DNA of 57,983 nucleotides from Bacillota bacterium (lineage in GTDB: Bacteria; Bacillota; Clostridia; Acetivibrionales; DTU013), in contig JAEYRF010000225.1 of assembly GCA_023409615.1 (NCBI GenBank), positions 1 through 57,983 of the forward strand. Direction: 5' to 3'. How positions within the stretch are numbered: position 1 is the stretch's first letter; every line of letters begins with the position of its first letter. Below the pieces are notes generated by a model, which ran no database searches, was not told the origin of the DNA, and was given only the letters and a program-made list of their open reading frames with translations. Of the stretch, positions 53,245 to 57,983 are shown in pieces. The position numbers were made by a program, and so were the translations under genes.

Positions 53245-56200
53245 ATGAATATAAAAATAATGAGTTACCGTATAATACCGGTATTTCTATCGGTTATAAT
53301 ACTCCTGACTGTTATATTGCTGACCAGCTTTTCGGCAGCTGGTGAGCCGAGATATGAAAGTCCCGGTATGACATTCATGGATGAGACAAAAGCGGGAAAG
53401 GATTTGTACGAAAAATACAAAATAGAGCTGCCGTCTCTTCCCGGCGGCGGAGTACCGCCCCAGTATATAACAGGTCCTGAGGGGACAAAGCTATACGTCA
53501 ATCTGAAGCTATGGCTGGATCATAGTATTCTTTGTTACGGTGAATGGTCGGATGTGCCCGACAACTATAAAACCAGTGGTACAGTTGGTTTTAAAAGTTC
53601 CACCCAAAAGCCGGGATATCCCGTCGAAAAGAATAAGGGGTACTATTTAAAAAATGGCAGGCGCGGAGAATACCGCTACCACGGCTATGACATCAATGGG
53701 AACAAGCTCACAAACCTATACTTTGAGGTAGACTCCTCTGTAACAAAGTTCGATGAAAGAGCATGGATTAAGAATCCGTGGGATGAATTACCACTCAGTT
53801 ATATGCACAAACCTGATCATGAAAGTATATACAACAATGCAGCCATAGGTTTTGACCCGTACCCTAATCCTGCTGTGCAACCGGGAGTGCAGAACTGGAT
53901 CAACAAGGCTATGCAGCTATACGGCGGTGTCCCGCTGATTGGAGCTGTCGTCGACCCGGAGGTATTCAGATATCTTTATGTGGAATCCGCACCTACGACT
54001 CTGGGCTTGGGACAGGGACGCATGTGGCACGAGAGGGATAACGGGTCGATATGGTACCAGACCATAGCGGTGCCTCAGCTCACAGAGAAGAAGAACCTGC
54101 CGGTAGAGGCTGAAATTGTATTACTTACAGAGCTGCCTGAGAACATTACGGACGTCGGTACTGCTATGGATGATATGGAAATAACTCTTGAATTTGAGGT
54201 TAGCGCTATCCTTAAGGATGATGACATATTTGATGACCCTGTTCAGCAGACCGTGTTCTATACAAGGTATGATATAAAGGATTGGAATATCACATTTTCG
54301 GCACCGGAGCAGACAGAACAGGCCGACCCGAAGGCAATTAACACAGTAAACAGAGGAAGCCGCAAATTTAGGTATACAACCACATACGGTTATCTGAAAG
54401 CACACAGCAAAAGTATAGGCGGCAAGACTACATGGAATCTCCACTTTACTGCCACTGCCAGGCCAAATTACAAGAATGGCAGCTATGGACTCATAGACAA
54501 CGCCGCATATGATCTCGGTATCGGAGTGGTGCAAGCTCCAGAACCGCCTGCTCAGGTAGTCGTGGGCTTTACGCCTGCTCCGGACATTCCTGAGATTGCT
54601 TTCGATGGTGTTCCTTTCACAGCAAGTGACATATCTGACATGTCAATCGTGGAATACCGAAAGGTATTTGTAGATGGTATTGAAGTGGATGGAAGCCAGT
54701 TTTTCTCCGGCAGCTATATTTTTCCCGGAGCAGTCGGAGTAAACGGACGGTTTGCATATGTGGACTGTGAGTATAAAGTGGAGGGCTTTCCATCTGAGAC
54801 CGGCAAAGCTGTTACAAGAGACGTGGTATATATCTATCCCACAAAGCCTATTGCTAACTATAAGATATCTTCTGATACATGGAAACAGAACAGGCTGATA
54901 AAAGTACAGGAAGCAAGCGACGAGGGAAATATTCGGCTTGTGATCGATAAATACCCGATAGTGGAGTATCAATGGACATTCGGCGGCAATACTTCGCAGC
55001 TTCGAAAAGGCGCTGATTCAGATATCTCAAAAGAGCTATTGTATAAAGAACCGGGTATATACTCGTTGACACTCAAGGTAAAGAATACCTTAGGCAAATG
55101 GTCCGATCCCTATAATGTTACATTTGAGGTGTTGGAGGATATCGCGCCGGCTGTTGGTGTAAATCTTTCAGAATCCGTATACACCCGTAACGATAAAGTG
55201 AGCGCCTGGTATTATCTTGCTGCCAGTACAGACGGCGACATAATTAAATCATCGGAGATAGAGCTATGGCATGACTCCGACAATGATGGCACAGTGGATA
55301 AAAAACTGAAGACATGGAGCAATCAGGATGAATTTCCTGCCTTCAATCCGACTAAACTGGGCTACTATAAATACATTATATCGGCGAAAGAAGACATCAT
55401 TGACGATACTCTATTTCAGTACATCACAGAGGAAGATAAAAAATCCGCAACATACGAAGTGGAGTTCTGGGTGGATAATTATCAGCCAATCAGCGATCTT
55501 TATGTCAATATTCCCATCCAGCGCCCGTCGATTGATGTATATTTCATGCTGGATAAAAACCTGTCTACCGAAAAGGCAGACTATATCAAAAGCAGCAGGG
55601 TGAATATGTCAAACTGGCTTCTGGGTAAAAACATCATACCAAATGTGAACATATGGGATATGAAGACCTATACCTACTCGCAACCCGCGAATACAAGTGT
55701 CAATACAGGTGAAAGTTATCCTTCAACAACATATGTTTATTCAAGCAGCGGGTATTCAGGAACACTAGAAAGGACAAGTGTATCGAATAACAGCTATTCG
55801 AGGGATCAGGGCAAGTATGAGACAAGACAAGAAAGCAAATCATTGTCACAAGCGGCCTCCAATACTAATTCAGTAACATATCGATGGTCAGGTAGTTCAT
55901 GGGTTCAGGTTGGTAAAGATGAAAGTCAGCTTCCATCCTCCAGATCCTACACAGACAGTAGTGGATACAGTGGAACGCTTCAGAAAAGTTCCGGTATCAA
56001 GACAGGAACGTCAGGTTCCGCACCTTCAAACCCAAATATTGGTCAAACCTATACCTATTACAGCTACTGGTCGTGTACTTACTCGGGCACTGTATACAGA
56101 ACTGTTAATGTGTGGGTTCCAAACATTGTATGGTACGACAATTATACCGGATATTACAGCGGAACGATTAATAAAAATGTTAGGCAGCCCTATACTGACC

Positions 56201-57983
56201 CATTTAAAGCAACTTCAGCAAAATATGTTGTATATATAAGTGACGGAGCCATTTCAGAGCCTTCTGACCTGAGCACAGTAATGGGTTATGCAAGTACAGC
56301 GAAGCTTTATCTGGCTGGAGCGGATGAAATAAAGACACAACGGGAGCATGACAAATATTTTTCAATGACTGATGAAACTATAGATGTTGTGCTCGATGAA
56401 ATACTTAATTATTTTTCATCGAACAGTCCTGATGTTGAGCGATTCTACCTGCTTCAGAATGAGAATTTCGTGATGAATGCAGGTCAACTGGATCTTGAAA
56501 ACGATCCGATTGTTGAGACTGGGATGCAGTATGTTCATGAAGCTAACTATTATGATAATCCTACCGGCAATGAACCGGGAACGGTTGTGGAATTTAATGA
56601 AAATATCGGCTGGAGCGCTACCGTAAAGTCAAGCCTTAGCAACGTGGGCAAATATACGGTATATCGAAGGGTAAAGGATAAGCCCACAACTGATCCGAAT
56701 TTTGCGCAATACTCATATTACTCAGGCAATACATCTCTTGAAATTTATGTGGTGCGCAAACCGATTGCCCTTGCGACACTTGATTGGGATTACGACACGT
56801 CATCAAGCATATACAAGACAACCTGGATTGATCAGTCCTATGACCCTGATCACCAGTACAGCCGGGCAGATAAGGGAATTGTGGAACGAAATATTATGTG
56901 GAAAAGGTCAGGAGGCCAATGGAATTATGGTATTCCTGATAACCTTACACCCGGGAATTATGAACTGAATTACTATGTGCTTGATCCTGAGGGATATTGG
57001 TCGGATCCGTTTACAATGAACTTTACCTTGTCTGAGGCGCCGTCTATACAATTTACTGCTGCATTGCGTACACTAAATAGTGATTTCAGTCTTTCAGGAA
57101 TTCCTGCATCAGAAAAGCTGGAGGCATTTAATCTATGGACTCGCCACCCGCAAAATGTAAAGCTTGAAATGGCTTTATACAATGGCGCTTCACGGGTCAG
57201 TCCATTAAAAACTGTTACTTTCGGCGAATCCACCGGAACAAGGGTGAATAATGATATTACATGGAGTAATGTAATCTATCAGATTCCAGAAACATTGCCG
57301 GATCGTGCTTATGATTTCAGAATCTCAGCAGTTGGAGACGACGGGCAAAGAACAGATAAGAGTTTTATAGTAAACGTTTCTACTCCATTGAAGCTTGAAC
57401 CGGTCATGCCCGCTGAGGTTAATGGCGGGGTAACTACAGAGGTATCAGCACATACAACAGAATATGCCGAAGATGTGAATGTCATATTGTTCTATGGGAC
57501 TCCATATGCAAGGCCGCCATACACTTTAACTGAATTTGAAAATGCAGCAGGCGGAGGTAAACTGTGGGAGGGAAGTCCTAATGTACTGACCGGTATACCT
57601 GAAGGAGACTATGTTGCCAGATTTACCGCAACTGCACCTAATGGGACAACTCAGTCAAGAAATTTATCTTTCACATTGGTGAATCTCGGCATATCAAATG
57701 TCAGTATTAGCGGCTACTGGAATCACTGGCGCGGGCAGGTTGACATTTTTGGTAAACGCCTGACTAATGAGCCACACAGATTCCTGTCTCTGGAACGTGT
57801 CAAAATTAATGTTTCAACTATTGGAGAACCCGAACGTGTCACTATACGTTTCAGCCCTGAGCTTGAGGCAATGCAATACACTGATCCGAAAGGCCATTCC
57901 TATGATTATGCAGAAGACTTCTTTGACTATGATGTAGCATTTCCTGAGGATTCAACTTTTTCGGGCTCAGCGAATTCTATAGC
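53245..57983 (+). CDS. Giant secreted or membrane-anchored protein (at least 1579 aa, 3' end beyond the window) with a PKD-like module and a possible split vWA-like region
   Basis: It is absent from the ORF track because no stop occurs. I read all 79 sequence lines from 53281 onward in frame 1 and found no TAA, TAG or TGA. GGAGG lies upstream of the ATG at 53245. The N-terminus is MNIKIMSYRIIPVFLSVIILLTVILLTSFSAAG. The PKD-like stretch is YQWTFGGNTSQL...GIYSLTLKVKNTLGKWSDPYNVTFEV. Confidence 0.85.
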   Translation, partial: MNIKIMSYRIIPVFLSVIILLTVILLTSFSAAGEPRYESPGMTFMDETKAGKDLYEKYKIELPSLPGGGVPPQYITGPEGTKLYVNLKLWLDHSILCYGEWSDVPDNYKTSGTVGFKSSTQKPGYPVEKNKGYYLKNGRRGEYRYHGYDINGNKLTNLYFEVDSSVTKFDERAWIKNPWDELPLSYMHKPDHESIYNNAAIGFDPYPNPAVQPGVQNWINKAMQLYGGVPLIGAVVDPEVFRYLYVESAPTTLGLGQGRMWHERDNGSIWYQTIAVPQLTEKKNLPVEAEIVLLTELPENITDVGTAMDDMEITLEFEVSAILKDDDIFDDPVQQTVFYTRYDIKDWNITFSAPEQTEQADPKAINTVNRGSRKFRYTTTYGYLKAHSKSIGGKTTWNLHFTATARPNYKNGSYGLIDNAAYDLGIGVVQAPEPPAQVVVGFTPAPDIPEIAFDGVPFTASDISDMSIVEYRKVFVDGIEVDGSQFFSGSYIFPGAVGVNGRFAYVDCEYKVEGFPSETGKAVTRDVVYIYPTKPIANYKISSDTWKQNRLIKVQEASDEGNIRLVIDKYPIVEYQWTFGGNTSQLRKGADSDISKELLYKEPGIYSLTLKVKNTLGKWSDPYNVTFEVLEDIAPAVGVNLSESVYTRNDKVSAWYYLAASTDGDIIKSSEIELWHDSDNDGTVDKKLKTWSNQDEFPAFNPTKLGYYKYIISAKEDIIDDTLFQYITEEDKKSATYEVEFWVDNYQPISDLYVNIPIQRPSIDVYFMLDKNLSTEKADYIKSSRVNMSNWLLGKNIIPNVNIWDMKTYTYSQPANTSVNTGESYPSTTYVYSSSGYSGTLERTSVSNNSYSRDQGKYETRQESKSLSQAASNTNSVTYRWSGSSWVQVGKDESQLPSSRSYTDSSGYSGTLQKSSGIKTGTSGSAPSNPNIGQTYTYYSYWSCTYSGTVYRTVNVWVPNIVWYDNYTGYYSGTINKNVRQPYTDPFKATSAKYVVYISDGAISEPSDLSTVMGYASTAKLYLAGADEIKTQREHDKYFSMTDETIDVVLDEILNYFSSNSPDVERFYLLQNENFVMNAGQLDLENDPIVETGMQYVHEANYYDNPTGNEPGTVVEFNENIGWSATVKSSLSNVGKYTVYRRVKDKPTTDPNFAQYSYYSGNTSLEIYVVRKPIALATLDWDYDTSSSIYKTTWIDQSYDPDHQYSRADKGIVERNIMWKRSGGQWNYGIPDNLTPGNYELNYYVLDPEGYWSDPFTMNFTLSEAPSIQFTAALRTLNSDFSLSGIPASEKLEAFNLWTRHPQNVKLEMALYNGASRVSPLKTVTFGESTGTRVNNDITWSNVIYQIPETLPDRAYDFRISAVGDDGQRTDKSFIVNVSTPLKLEPVMPAEVNGGVTTEVSAHTTEYAEDVNVILFYGTPYARPPYTLTEFENAAGGGKLWEGSPNVLTGIPEGDYVARFTATAPNGTTQSRNLSFTLVNLGISNVSISGYWNHWRGQVDIFGKRLTNEPHRFLSLERVKINVSTIGEPERVTIRFSPELEAMQYTDPKGHSYDYAEDFFDYDVAFPEDSTFSGSANSI

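Follow-up and report, generated by a model that had tools for sequence, protein, structure and literature searches.

The DNA analysed here, 57,983 nucleotides (nt) of contig JAEYRF010000225.1 from a Bacillota bacterium of the clostridial lineage DTU013 (hereafter the window), ends inside a very long gene, whose product is a secreted surface protein of ~1640 residues that we call the giant protein. Directly before it lies the gene for a smaller, secreted SLH-domain protein, and this near-invariant gene pair is the conserved unit of the family. Among the readings weighed below, we lean towards the one in which the giant protein is the part exposed on the surface in a two-gene adhesin module, anchored through SLH repeats and, in this genome, appended to a Tad/Flp pilus operon; what we infer within that reading is that the two proteins dock with one another, that the giant protein acts as an adhesin, and what its ligand would be. 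The giant protein is a multidomain surface protein, probably SLH-anchored, with two modules that lack solved structural relatives, and it belongs to a well-delimited family that has so far been catalogued by a domain name only.

A giant exoprotein gene and its SLH partner

The long frame is a genuine, nearly complete gene. From the ATG at 53245, 5 nt behind a Shine-Dalgarno GGAGG, frame 1 of the forward strand runs through 1579 codons to the window's end (53245-57983) with zero stops, against 55-144 stops in each of the other five frames across the same interval, and the chance of a stop-free frame of this length, computed from the base composition of the window, is ~1e-42. The original prediction, which had been drawn from the letters of the DNA and a list of open reading frames (ORFs), was right about the frame and its GGAGG, and also right that the list had missed it and held only short off-frame ORFs here; the omission is an artefact, because the ORF lister leaves out any ORF that is cut off by an end of the sequence. 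Its description of a giant gene running off the window was true, but overstated how much is missing. The closest homologue, P0001 (locus L001), has 1637 amino acids (aa), is 97% identical to the window protein and sits in an identical gene neighbourhood, and therefore the window protein is without only ~58 C-terminal residues.

The hydrophobic N-terminal signal or anchor that had been noted is present, and consists of a basic n-region (MNIKIMSYR), 20 hydrophobic residues and then a SFSAA/G site. It reads as a Sec signal peptide, and as neither a prepilin nor a pseudopilin leader; reading of the N-terminal sequence found no prepilin G/xxxxE motif. At its other end, the full-length homologue P0001 finishes in …NIYDLTYIQPKD, and it has no wall anchor of its own in the form of an LPXTG motif, a C-terminal hydrophobic tail or an SLH domain. 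Similarly, no SLH match was obtained in the window's giant protein, the SLH repeats being found instead in the adjacent partner, and cohesin and dockerin models matched neither protein of the pair. By these signs, the giant protein would be neither a sortase-anchored LPXTG adhesin nor a protein anchored through cohesin and dockerin.

The SLH partner gene ends 14 nt before the giant gene. Linkage was counted by tblastn of the window proteins against the family loci, 67 of which were informative for SLH and 58 for the Tad ATPase, and a homologue of the partner was found directly upstream of the giant gene, on the same strand, in 63 of the 67, with a gap of 9-30 nt where gene calls exist. The partner also has a conserved non-SLH C-terminal region of ~170 aa, which tblastn recovered from 25 loci, some of them Tad-free, with identities of 23-35%; since this region is itself conserved, the partner is a specific orthologue. 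There are at least five SLH-domain proteins in the 58-kb window, at 66-1949(+), 2103-6227(-), 7991-11518(+), 17849-20233(-) and 51917-53230(+), and by its gene content the host clearly has an envelope of the SLH/secondary-cell-wall-polymer type. In the first four, unlike the giant protein, SLH repeats are fused to functional domains, the fusions in the window being variously to InlB-B-repeat-like, FN3 or RCC1 domains.

Distribution of the family and its linkage to Tad operons

A scan of one genome per species gave 93 relatives, and the 80 loci that were kept came from Bacillota: Oscillospiraceae, other metagenome-assembled genomes (MAGs) of Clostridia, Ruminiclostridium, Paenibacillus, Cohnella, Fusibacter, Vallitalea and Alkaliphilus. 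The sole non-Bacillota label is that of an 'uncultured Aliarcobacter sp.' MAG contig carrying the gene pair (L052, OY781916.1), which is probably mis-binned or mislabelled. An exhaustive profile search with the central module of the protein (described below) against 1.84 billion representatives of clusters at 50% identity returned 155 at E≤1e-3, most of them sharing the architecture of the window protein. The annotations given to the family read 'hypothetical protein' or 'PKD domain-containing' and, in one implausible case, 'transcriptional regulator', and in the literature no paper was found on the pairing with an SLH gene, on the linkage to Tad or on the YSGT repeat of the central module. 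Several genomes hold two paralogues, some of them having one that is Tad-linked and one that is not, and some copies are plasmid-borne. In L086 (15267-25238) the genes after the copy are those for Rep3_N, a resolvase, SSB and a methylase, and the Vallitalea pronyensis plasmid pVpro (L087, NZ_CP058650.1) carries two tandem pairs of SLH protein and giant hypothetical protein, of which only the second giant belongs to the family described here.

A T2SSE/Tad-type ATPase lies near 19 of the 58 informative loci (six in close orthologous Tad operons and 13 in divergent ones), and 16 of the 19 ATPases are upstream on the same strand. This count is a lower bound, as the loci extend only ~7.7 kb upstream, and it compares with a roughly estimated chance expectation of 1-2%. 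No T2SSE-type ATPase was found within ~7.7 kb of upstream and 8 kb of downstream DNA at the other 39 loci, and three distant loci with the full 10 kb of upstream DNA have the SLH gene and no Tad genes. The ATPases near family loci stand in operons of differing composition and are only 22-34% identical to that of the window, and the divergent neighbourhoods are genuine Tad-type operons. Tad linkage is thus facultative, yet recurrent in divergent lineages and with different Tad operon types, and because of that recurrence the link to Tad operons that had been proposed is, to some degree, real.

The operons vary in their other genes: a CpaB-like protein and DUF4320 occur in one divergent operon (L021) and an HD-domain protein in another, and both of these operons end in the SLH and giant genes. 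In Vallitalea the Tad cluster is divergently oriented, and a Ser/Thr kinase lies beside it. Besides the SLH and Tad genes, no neighbour is conserved across the loci. A conserved downstream partner was considered and rejected, as the downstream genes differ even among the closest relatives; in L001 the gene after the giant ORF (14981-15205) encodes a tandem 11-residue repeat (SDITGLRTEFK…), and in other close relatives DUF975 and rhomboid genes are found.

Anatomy of the giant protein

Scans of the whole protein with Pfam, NCBIfam and PHROGs models gave nothing above threshold except the NCBIfam Athe_2463 domain and a marginal PKD match, with no PHROGs match at all. Segment-wise word-indexed homology searches returned fragments only, and phmmer and hmmsearch against PDB sequences, whether with the full protein, an N-terminal profile or a core-only profile, produced no meaningful match. 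In a conservation profile of 40 homologues the best conserved stretches were aa 741-850, 961-1000 and 1140-1260. The stretch of aa ~285-745 comprises β-rich Ig-like modules, and a C-terminal Ig-like stalk (aa 1067-1579 in the window, aa 1067-1637 at full length) holds more Ig/PKD-like modules. The PKD match (PF00801) passes its gathering threshold marginally, at 23.9 vs 23.5 bits, and covers model positions 28-79 of 80; it overlaps the PKD-like module that had been placed at 54967..55131, and several homologues carry precomputed PKD matches. The window protein's matches to PKD_4 and Y_Y_Y, and to DUF4625 and Big_13 at aa 1220-1254, are all sub-threshold. The description of a secreted multidomain protein with PKD/Ig-like modules is, with one marginal and several sub-threshold Pfam matches, supported.

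The Athe_2463 domain sits in a compact α+β head module (aa 34-292), where the NF047340 'Athe_2463_dom' model scores 136.2 bits against a curated cutoff of 36 and is covered from position 2 to 175 of 177. Glu142 and His262 of the head are invariant in alignment A2, and many Tyr and Trp residues are conserved. The name denotes only a 177-position domain of unknown function, and two distant full-length homologues are already called 'Athe_2463 domain-containing protein'. Its namesake, Athe_2463 of Caldicellulosiruptor bescii, is the only relative with experimental data: it has a signal peptide, was found in the extracellular proteome, was ~16-fold more abundant on xylan and xylose, and was suggested by the authors to have a role in C5-substrate deconstruction (PMC5865380). 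The resemblance extends to the N-terminal domain only; the operon partner of Athe_2463, Athe_2464, is a lipoprotein and not an SLH protein, and C. bescii is not among the loci carrying the central module.

The central module is among the best-conserved parts of the protein. An AlphaFold2 model from the 28-sequence alignment A1, with a mean predicted local distance difference test score (pLDDT) of 89.9, orders its elements (in module numbering) as β(20-27), α(33-51) and β(56-63), followed by ~175 residues of long β-hairpins (66-238) and then by β(250-256), α, β(278-283), α, β(295-298) and α(304-318), i.e., a single α/β domain split by an insertion. The head module was modelled with similar confidence (pLDDT 89.7, predicted template-modelling score 0.86). 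Yet both modules, at pLDDT ~90, have no significant PDB match: for the head, Foldseek against the PDB gave no fold match (best E 0.94, template-modelling score ≤0.14), and for the central module it gave nothing at E≤1e-3 in either the PDB or BFVD. The top matches of the latter were elongated β-sheet proteins, i.e., rotavirus VP5*, herpesvirus gB, aerolysin-like toxins and phage fibres, with template-modelling scores <0.25, and are treated as shape noise. A pore-forming toxin or phage-fibre relationship, considered from these matches and a weak Pfam Gp80 match (E 0.026), had no significant score and was rejected.

Is the central module a vWA domain?

In classical Tad loci TadG combines a pseudopilin-like N-terminus with a vWA domain, and the original prediction had read the central module as a vWA-like fold split by a large insertion, with DKNLS in place of the metal ion-dependent adhesion site (MIDAS) motif, and the giant protein as a possible functional analogue of TadG. 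A good deal of this description survives: the observation itself, some Tad association, the split α/β domain, and the two strands at its halves, IDVYFMLDKNLS at 55531-55566 and KYVVYISDGAISEP at 56221-56262, whose coordinates were exact. The vWA and TadG parts are largely unsupported. Hidden Markov model (HMM) searches together with AlphaFold and Foldseek analysis of the 55.5-56.3 kb segment detected no vWA homology. Pfam vWA models matched none of 28 family members at E≤1, the core-only profile A3 retrieved no vWA entry from the PDB sequences at E≤10, and hhalign of A3 against an integrin/vWF A-domain alignment (verified against the PDB) gave a probability of 1.3% over 11 columns. Of the MIDAS positions only the first Asp (aa 770) is invariant in the family, position 3 being N/D/S/E/G and position 5 S/T/D/E/K, and DKNLS is not supported as a surrogate.

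It seems very unlikely to us that the giant protein is nonetheless a genuine vWA/MIDAS adhesin, of the kind of TadG or RrgA, that has diverged far and bears an inserted arm. The modelled order of β-α-β, insertion, β-α-β-α-β-α is compatible with a vWA sheet, the first strand of the insertion following directly after β2; the invariant Asp is in the first strand, and an 'SDG'-like motif occurs at the fourth. In addition, the integrin α1 I-domain was the only compact α/β match from Foldseek (96 columns, root-mean-square deviation 4.8 Å). However, that match ranked 50th and was not significant (E 0.33, prob 0.47), the Asp of 'SDG' varies across the family as do the MIDAS positions given above, and the profile comparisons were negative throughout. 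A vWA-like topology is conceivable, but vWA/MIDAS membership is not supported. The likeness to TadG is that of a large non-pilin protein at the distal end of a Tad operon; the giant protein differs in having a predicted Sec signal peptide, no TadE/G-like N-terminus (no Pfam TadE or Tad match at E≤1), no detectable vWA homology and no conserved MIDAS, and its linkage to Tad genes is facultative, its constant partner being the SLH gene.

A portable YSGT module

The insertion that splits the central module is a 175-residue, all-β segment of two nested repeat units, 21% Ser and rich in Thr and Tyr, with four YSGT[LVI] motifs observed against 0.01 expected. They are SSGYSGTL at 55744 and 55957, YSGTV at 56080 and GYYSGTI at 56149; three had been placed exactly, and the first had been placed one codon early, at 55741. 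The motifs are conserved family-wide in alignment A1, and in the model three of the four come directly after tight turns and open long strands. The repeat unit is …YPPST··YSD··GYSGTL·R··V… followed by …YTG·YSGTV·K·V…, and the nested order of the two units in the window protein fits the paired long hairpins of the model. The insertion is also found alone, near the N-termini of RHS/DUF6531 proteins (one of them with cohesin and dockerin) and in multi-FN3 proteins, and ~8 tandem units make up a feature of P0142 (1282 aa), which has no Pfam match; carriers of a single module were noted among P0147, P0150, P0171, P0175 and P0180. No Pfam family covering the repeat was found. By this distribution the YSGT insertion is a portable, uncatalogued repeat module.

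What the gene pair may do

In the adhesin-module reading that we lean towards, the giant protein and its 437-aa partner would each be exported by Sec, the SLH repeats of the partner would bind the secondary cell-wall polymer, and its conserved C-terminal region would hold the giant protein non-covalently, a role that is proposed because the giant protein itself lacks an anchor. The ligand-binding surfaces would be the Athe_2463 head and the α/β module, from which the YSGT β-hairpins stand out as a prong, both projected by the Ig/PKD-like stalk. Here the pair is the last part of the Tad/Flp operon, and from that position it would be co-expressed with the pilus and made together with it for surface attachment. 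The reading draws on the genuine reading frame with its ribosome-binding site, the predicted signal peptides of both proteins, their near-invariant pairing, the conserved C-terminal region of the partner, the anchorless giant with its PKD/Ig-like modules, the host's other SLH proteins, the recurrent Tad linkage and the apparent operon without a terminator, on the extracellular detection of Athe_2463, on the presence of the YSGT module in other extracellular proteins (RHS/DUF6531, cohesin/dockerin, FN3), and on the multiple paralogues and plasmid-borne copies, which are typical of adhesin families. Several points weigh against it: only a third of the loci show Tad linkage, the partner is undetected in four of the 67, its C-terminal region is too divergent for tblastn in Paenibacillus and Cohnella, the two conserved modules as modelled do not look like any known adhesin or lectin fold, and the invariant Glu and His of the head could mean an enzyme rather than a binder.

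An enzyme, or a carbohydrate binder, is the core of one alternative, in which the giant protein would act on or bind extracellular polysaccharides, plant or microbial glycans, with the Athe_2463 head as the active module. The induction of Athe_2463 on xylan and xylose fits this, as do the invariant Glu and His and conserved aromatics of the head, the plant-biomass-degrading habit of many hosts (Ruminiclostridium, Paenibacillus, Cohnella), and the xylose isomerase-like and sugar-kinase genes among the neighbours in Paenibacillus nanensis. We consider it improbable, however, given that no Pfam glycoside-hydrolase or carbohydrate-binding-module model matches the giant protein, that the head gave no fold match to a solved enzyme, that Athe_2463 is related in its N-terminal domain only and has a lipoprotein partner, and that neighbours such as those in P. 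nanensis are not conserved. Alternatively, the pair could belong to the Tad/Flp pilus of single-membrane bacteria as a dedicated accessory, either a structure for docking or exit at the level of the wall or an adhesin associated with the pilus, and substitute functionally for TadG-type and outer-membrane components that are missing from this operon. Its position at the 3' end of the window's Tad operon with no internal terminator, the recurrence of the arrangement beside divergent Tad operons of Vallitalea, Cohnella, Paenibacillus and several lineages known from MAGs, at a frequency far above rough chance, and the lack of a recognised TadE/F/G, CpaB or TadV in the window operon all speak for such a role. 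It is nevertheless rather unlikely in our estimation, in view of the 39 loci without a nearby ATPase, the three that lack one even with the full 10 kb upstream, the genomes with one linked and one unlinked paralogue, and an N-terminus that is not pseudopilin-like in a protein that TadE/G and vWA models do not match. A stronger version we regard as unlikely: the pair, with its two folds without solved relatives (the Athe_2463 head and the YSGT-hairpin α/β module), would be an unrecognised wall-level Tad/Flp component of single-membrane Bacillota, be it a docking/exit platform or a pilus-coupled adhesin, that replaces the secretin and TadG-type parts of Gram-negative systems.

The Tad operon and other features of the window

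The features are collected in Table 1. No convincing + strand terminator was found in a scan from the operon promoter to the window's end, nor any between the genes. No TadV prepilin peptidase, TadE/F/G or CpaB/RcpC was recognised in the operon, in which the DUF6382-transmembrane (TM)-FHA protein is present instead of a recognisable TadV, TadE/F and CpaB/RcpC; it is probably a membrane scaffold or regulator of this Tad variant. The mechanical ORFs of the TadZ-like protein and TadA overlap by 44 nt (47159-47202), and the gene call in L001 gives TadA 433 aa vs 445, so that the true start of TadA probably lies a few codons downstream. The PilZ gene has its own promoter-like site (region 45105-45776) and is possibly a cyclic di-GMP input to the Tad operon; in L060 and L086 an HD-domain (HD_5) gene is found inside or after the operon. 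Unrelated neighbours in the window include a UvrD-like helicase, a transglutaminase-core protein, a bacterial SNF2 helicase and tRNA-Arg(CCT).

Table 1. Positions in the window of the giant gene, its modules, its partner and neighbouring features
Feature	Position	Strand	Basis and remarks
Giant exoprotein gene, partial	53245..57983	+	Stop-free; 1579 of ~1637 codons; predicted stop ~174 nt past window end
Sec-type signal peptide, aa 1-33	53245..53343	+	Read from sequence; predicted cleavage SFSAA/GEP
Athe_2463 domain, aa 86-273	53500..54063	+	NCBIfam NF047340, E 1.6e-39
PKD-like Ig module, aa 571-626	54955..55122	+	Pfam PF00801, 23.9 bits vs cutoff 23.5
Central conserved module, aa 743-1066	55471..56442	+	α/β core split by β-insertion; conservation, alignment A1, model
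YSGT β-hairpin insertion, aa 808-980	55666..56184	+	Long strands in model, motif positions, composition
Second PKD/Ig-like module, aa 1170-1262	56752..57030	+	PKD-like pattern read from sequence; strongly conserved
SLH partner, 437-aa secreted SLH-domain protein	51917..53230	+	Pfam SLH, E 1.3e-16; start codon, Shine-Dalgarno, signal peptide
PilZ-domain protein directly upstream of Tad operon	45165..45776	+	Pfam PilZ, 2.4e-07; conserved in L001, L018
Perfect σ70-type promoter consensus TTGACA-17-TATAAT	45846..45874	+	Consensus scan; predicted
TadZ-like	45901-47202	+	Pfam TadZ-like_ARD
TadA/CpaF ATPase	47159-48496	+	Pfam T2SSE, 3.8e-58
TadB-like	48493-49239	+	Pfam T2SSF
TadC-like	49236-50108	+	Pfam T2SSF
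Flp-type pilin (…DGLG/TVEIVVIIAVLVGIALIF…)	50111..50341	+	ORF and sequence; L001 orthologue carries PF16982 Flp1_like
DUF6382-TM-FHA protein	50428..51870	+	Pfam DUF6382 5e-28, FHA 1.8e-12; conserved in closest clade
Unrelated-neighbour regions	39899-44187, 28865-32095, 7710-7786	-	

Comparison with known systems and meaning

Two-component surface systems in which a wall-binding subunit serves a large exposed one have precedents in Clostridia. In the anchoring scaffoldins of Clostridium thermocellum, SLH repeats and a cohesin hold a dockerin-bearing scaffoldin, and the SlpA of C. difficile, with its high- and low-molecular-weight subunits, is a two-component surface system of the SLH-anchored type. 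The likeness is that a wall-binding subunit is encoded beside a large, anchorless, exposed one; the difference is that the present pair has no match to the cohesin or dockerin models, and docking is here presumed. RrgA and GBS104 are tip adhesins of Gram-positive pili whose vWA domains bear inserted arms. What they share with the giant protein is the general design, an Ig-like stalk carrying an α/β domain into which long β stretches are inserted, but both are sortase substrates with clear vWA/MIDAS signatures, and the giant protein has neither. The tāpirins of Caldicellulosiruptor (PMC5865380 mentions Athe_1870/1871) are adhesins encoded beside a type IV pilus locus, and thus also structurally unusual non-pilin surface proteins of Clostridia whose genes adjoin a type IV filament operon. 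No sequence relationship to them was found, and tāpirins are much smaller, have a single fold and are linked to type IVa pili rather than Tad.

What emerges from the analysis is a compact unit open to testing, in which an SLH anchor gene is followed by a gene for a ~1600-1900-aa exoprotein. The surface proteomes of Clostridia and Paenibacillus contain many unannotated giant proteins, and how Tad/Flp pili and other surface machines cross, or attach to, the thick wall of Gram-positives is poorly understood. If the giant protein is an adhesin, it would represent a new family of binding modules, one that RHS toxins use as well; if it is coupled to the pilus, the pair would fill a gap in the parts list of monoderm Tad systems.

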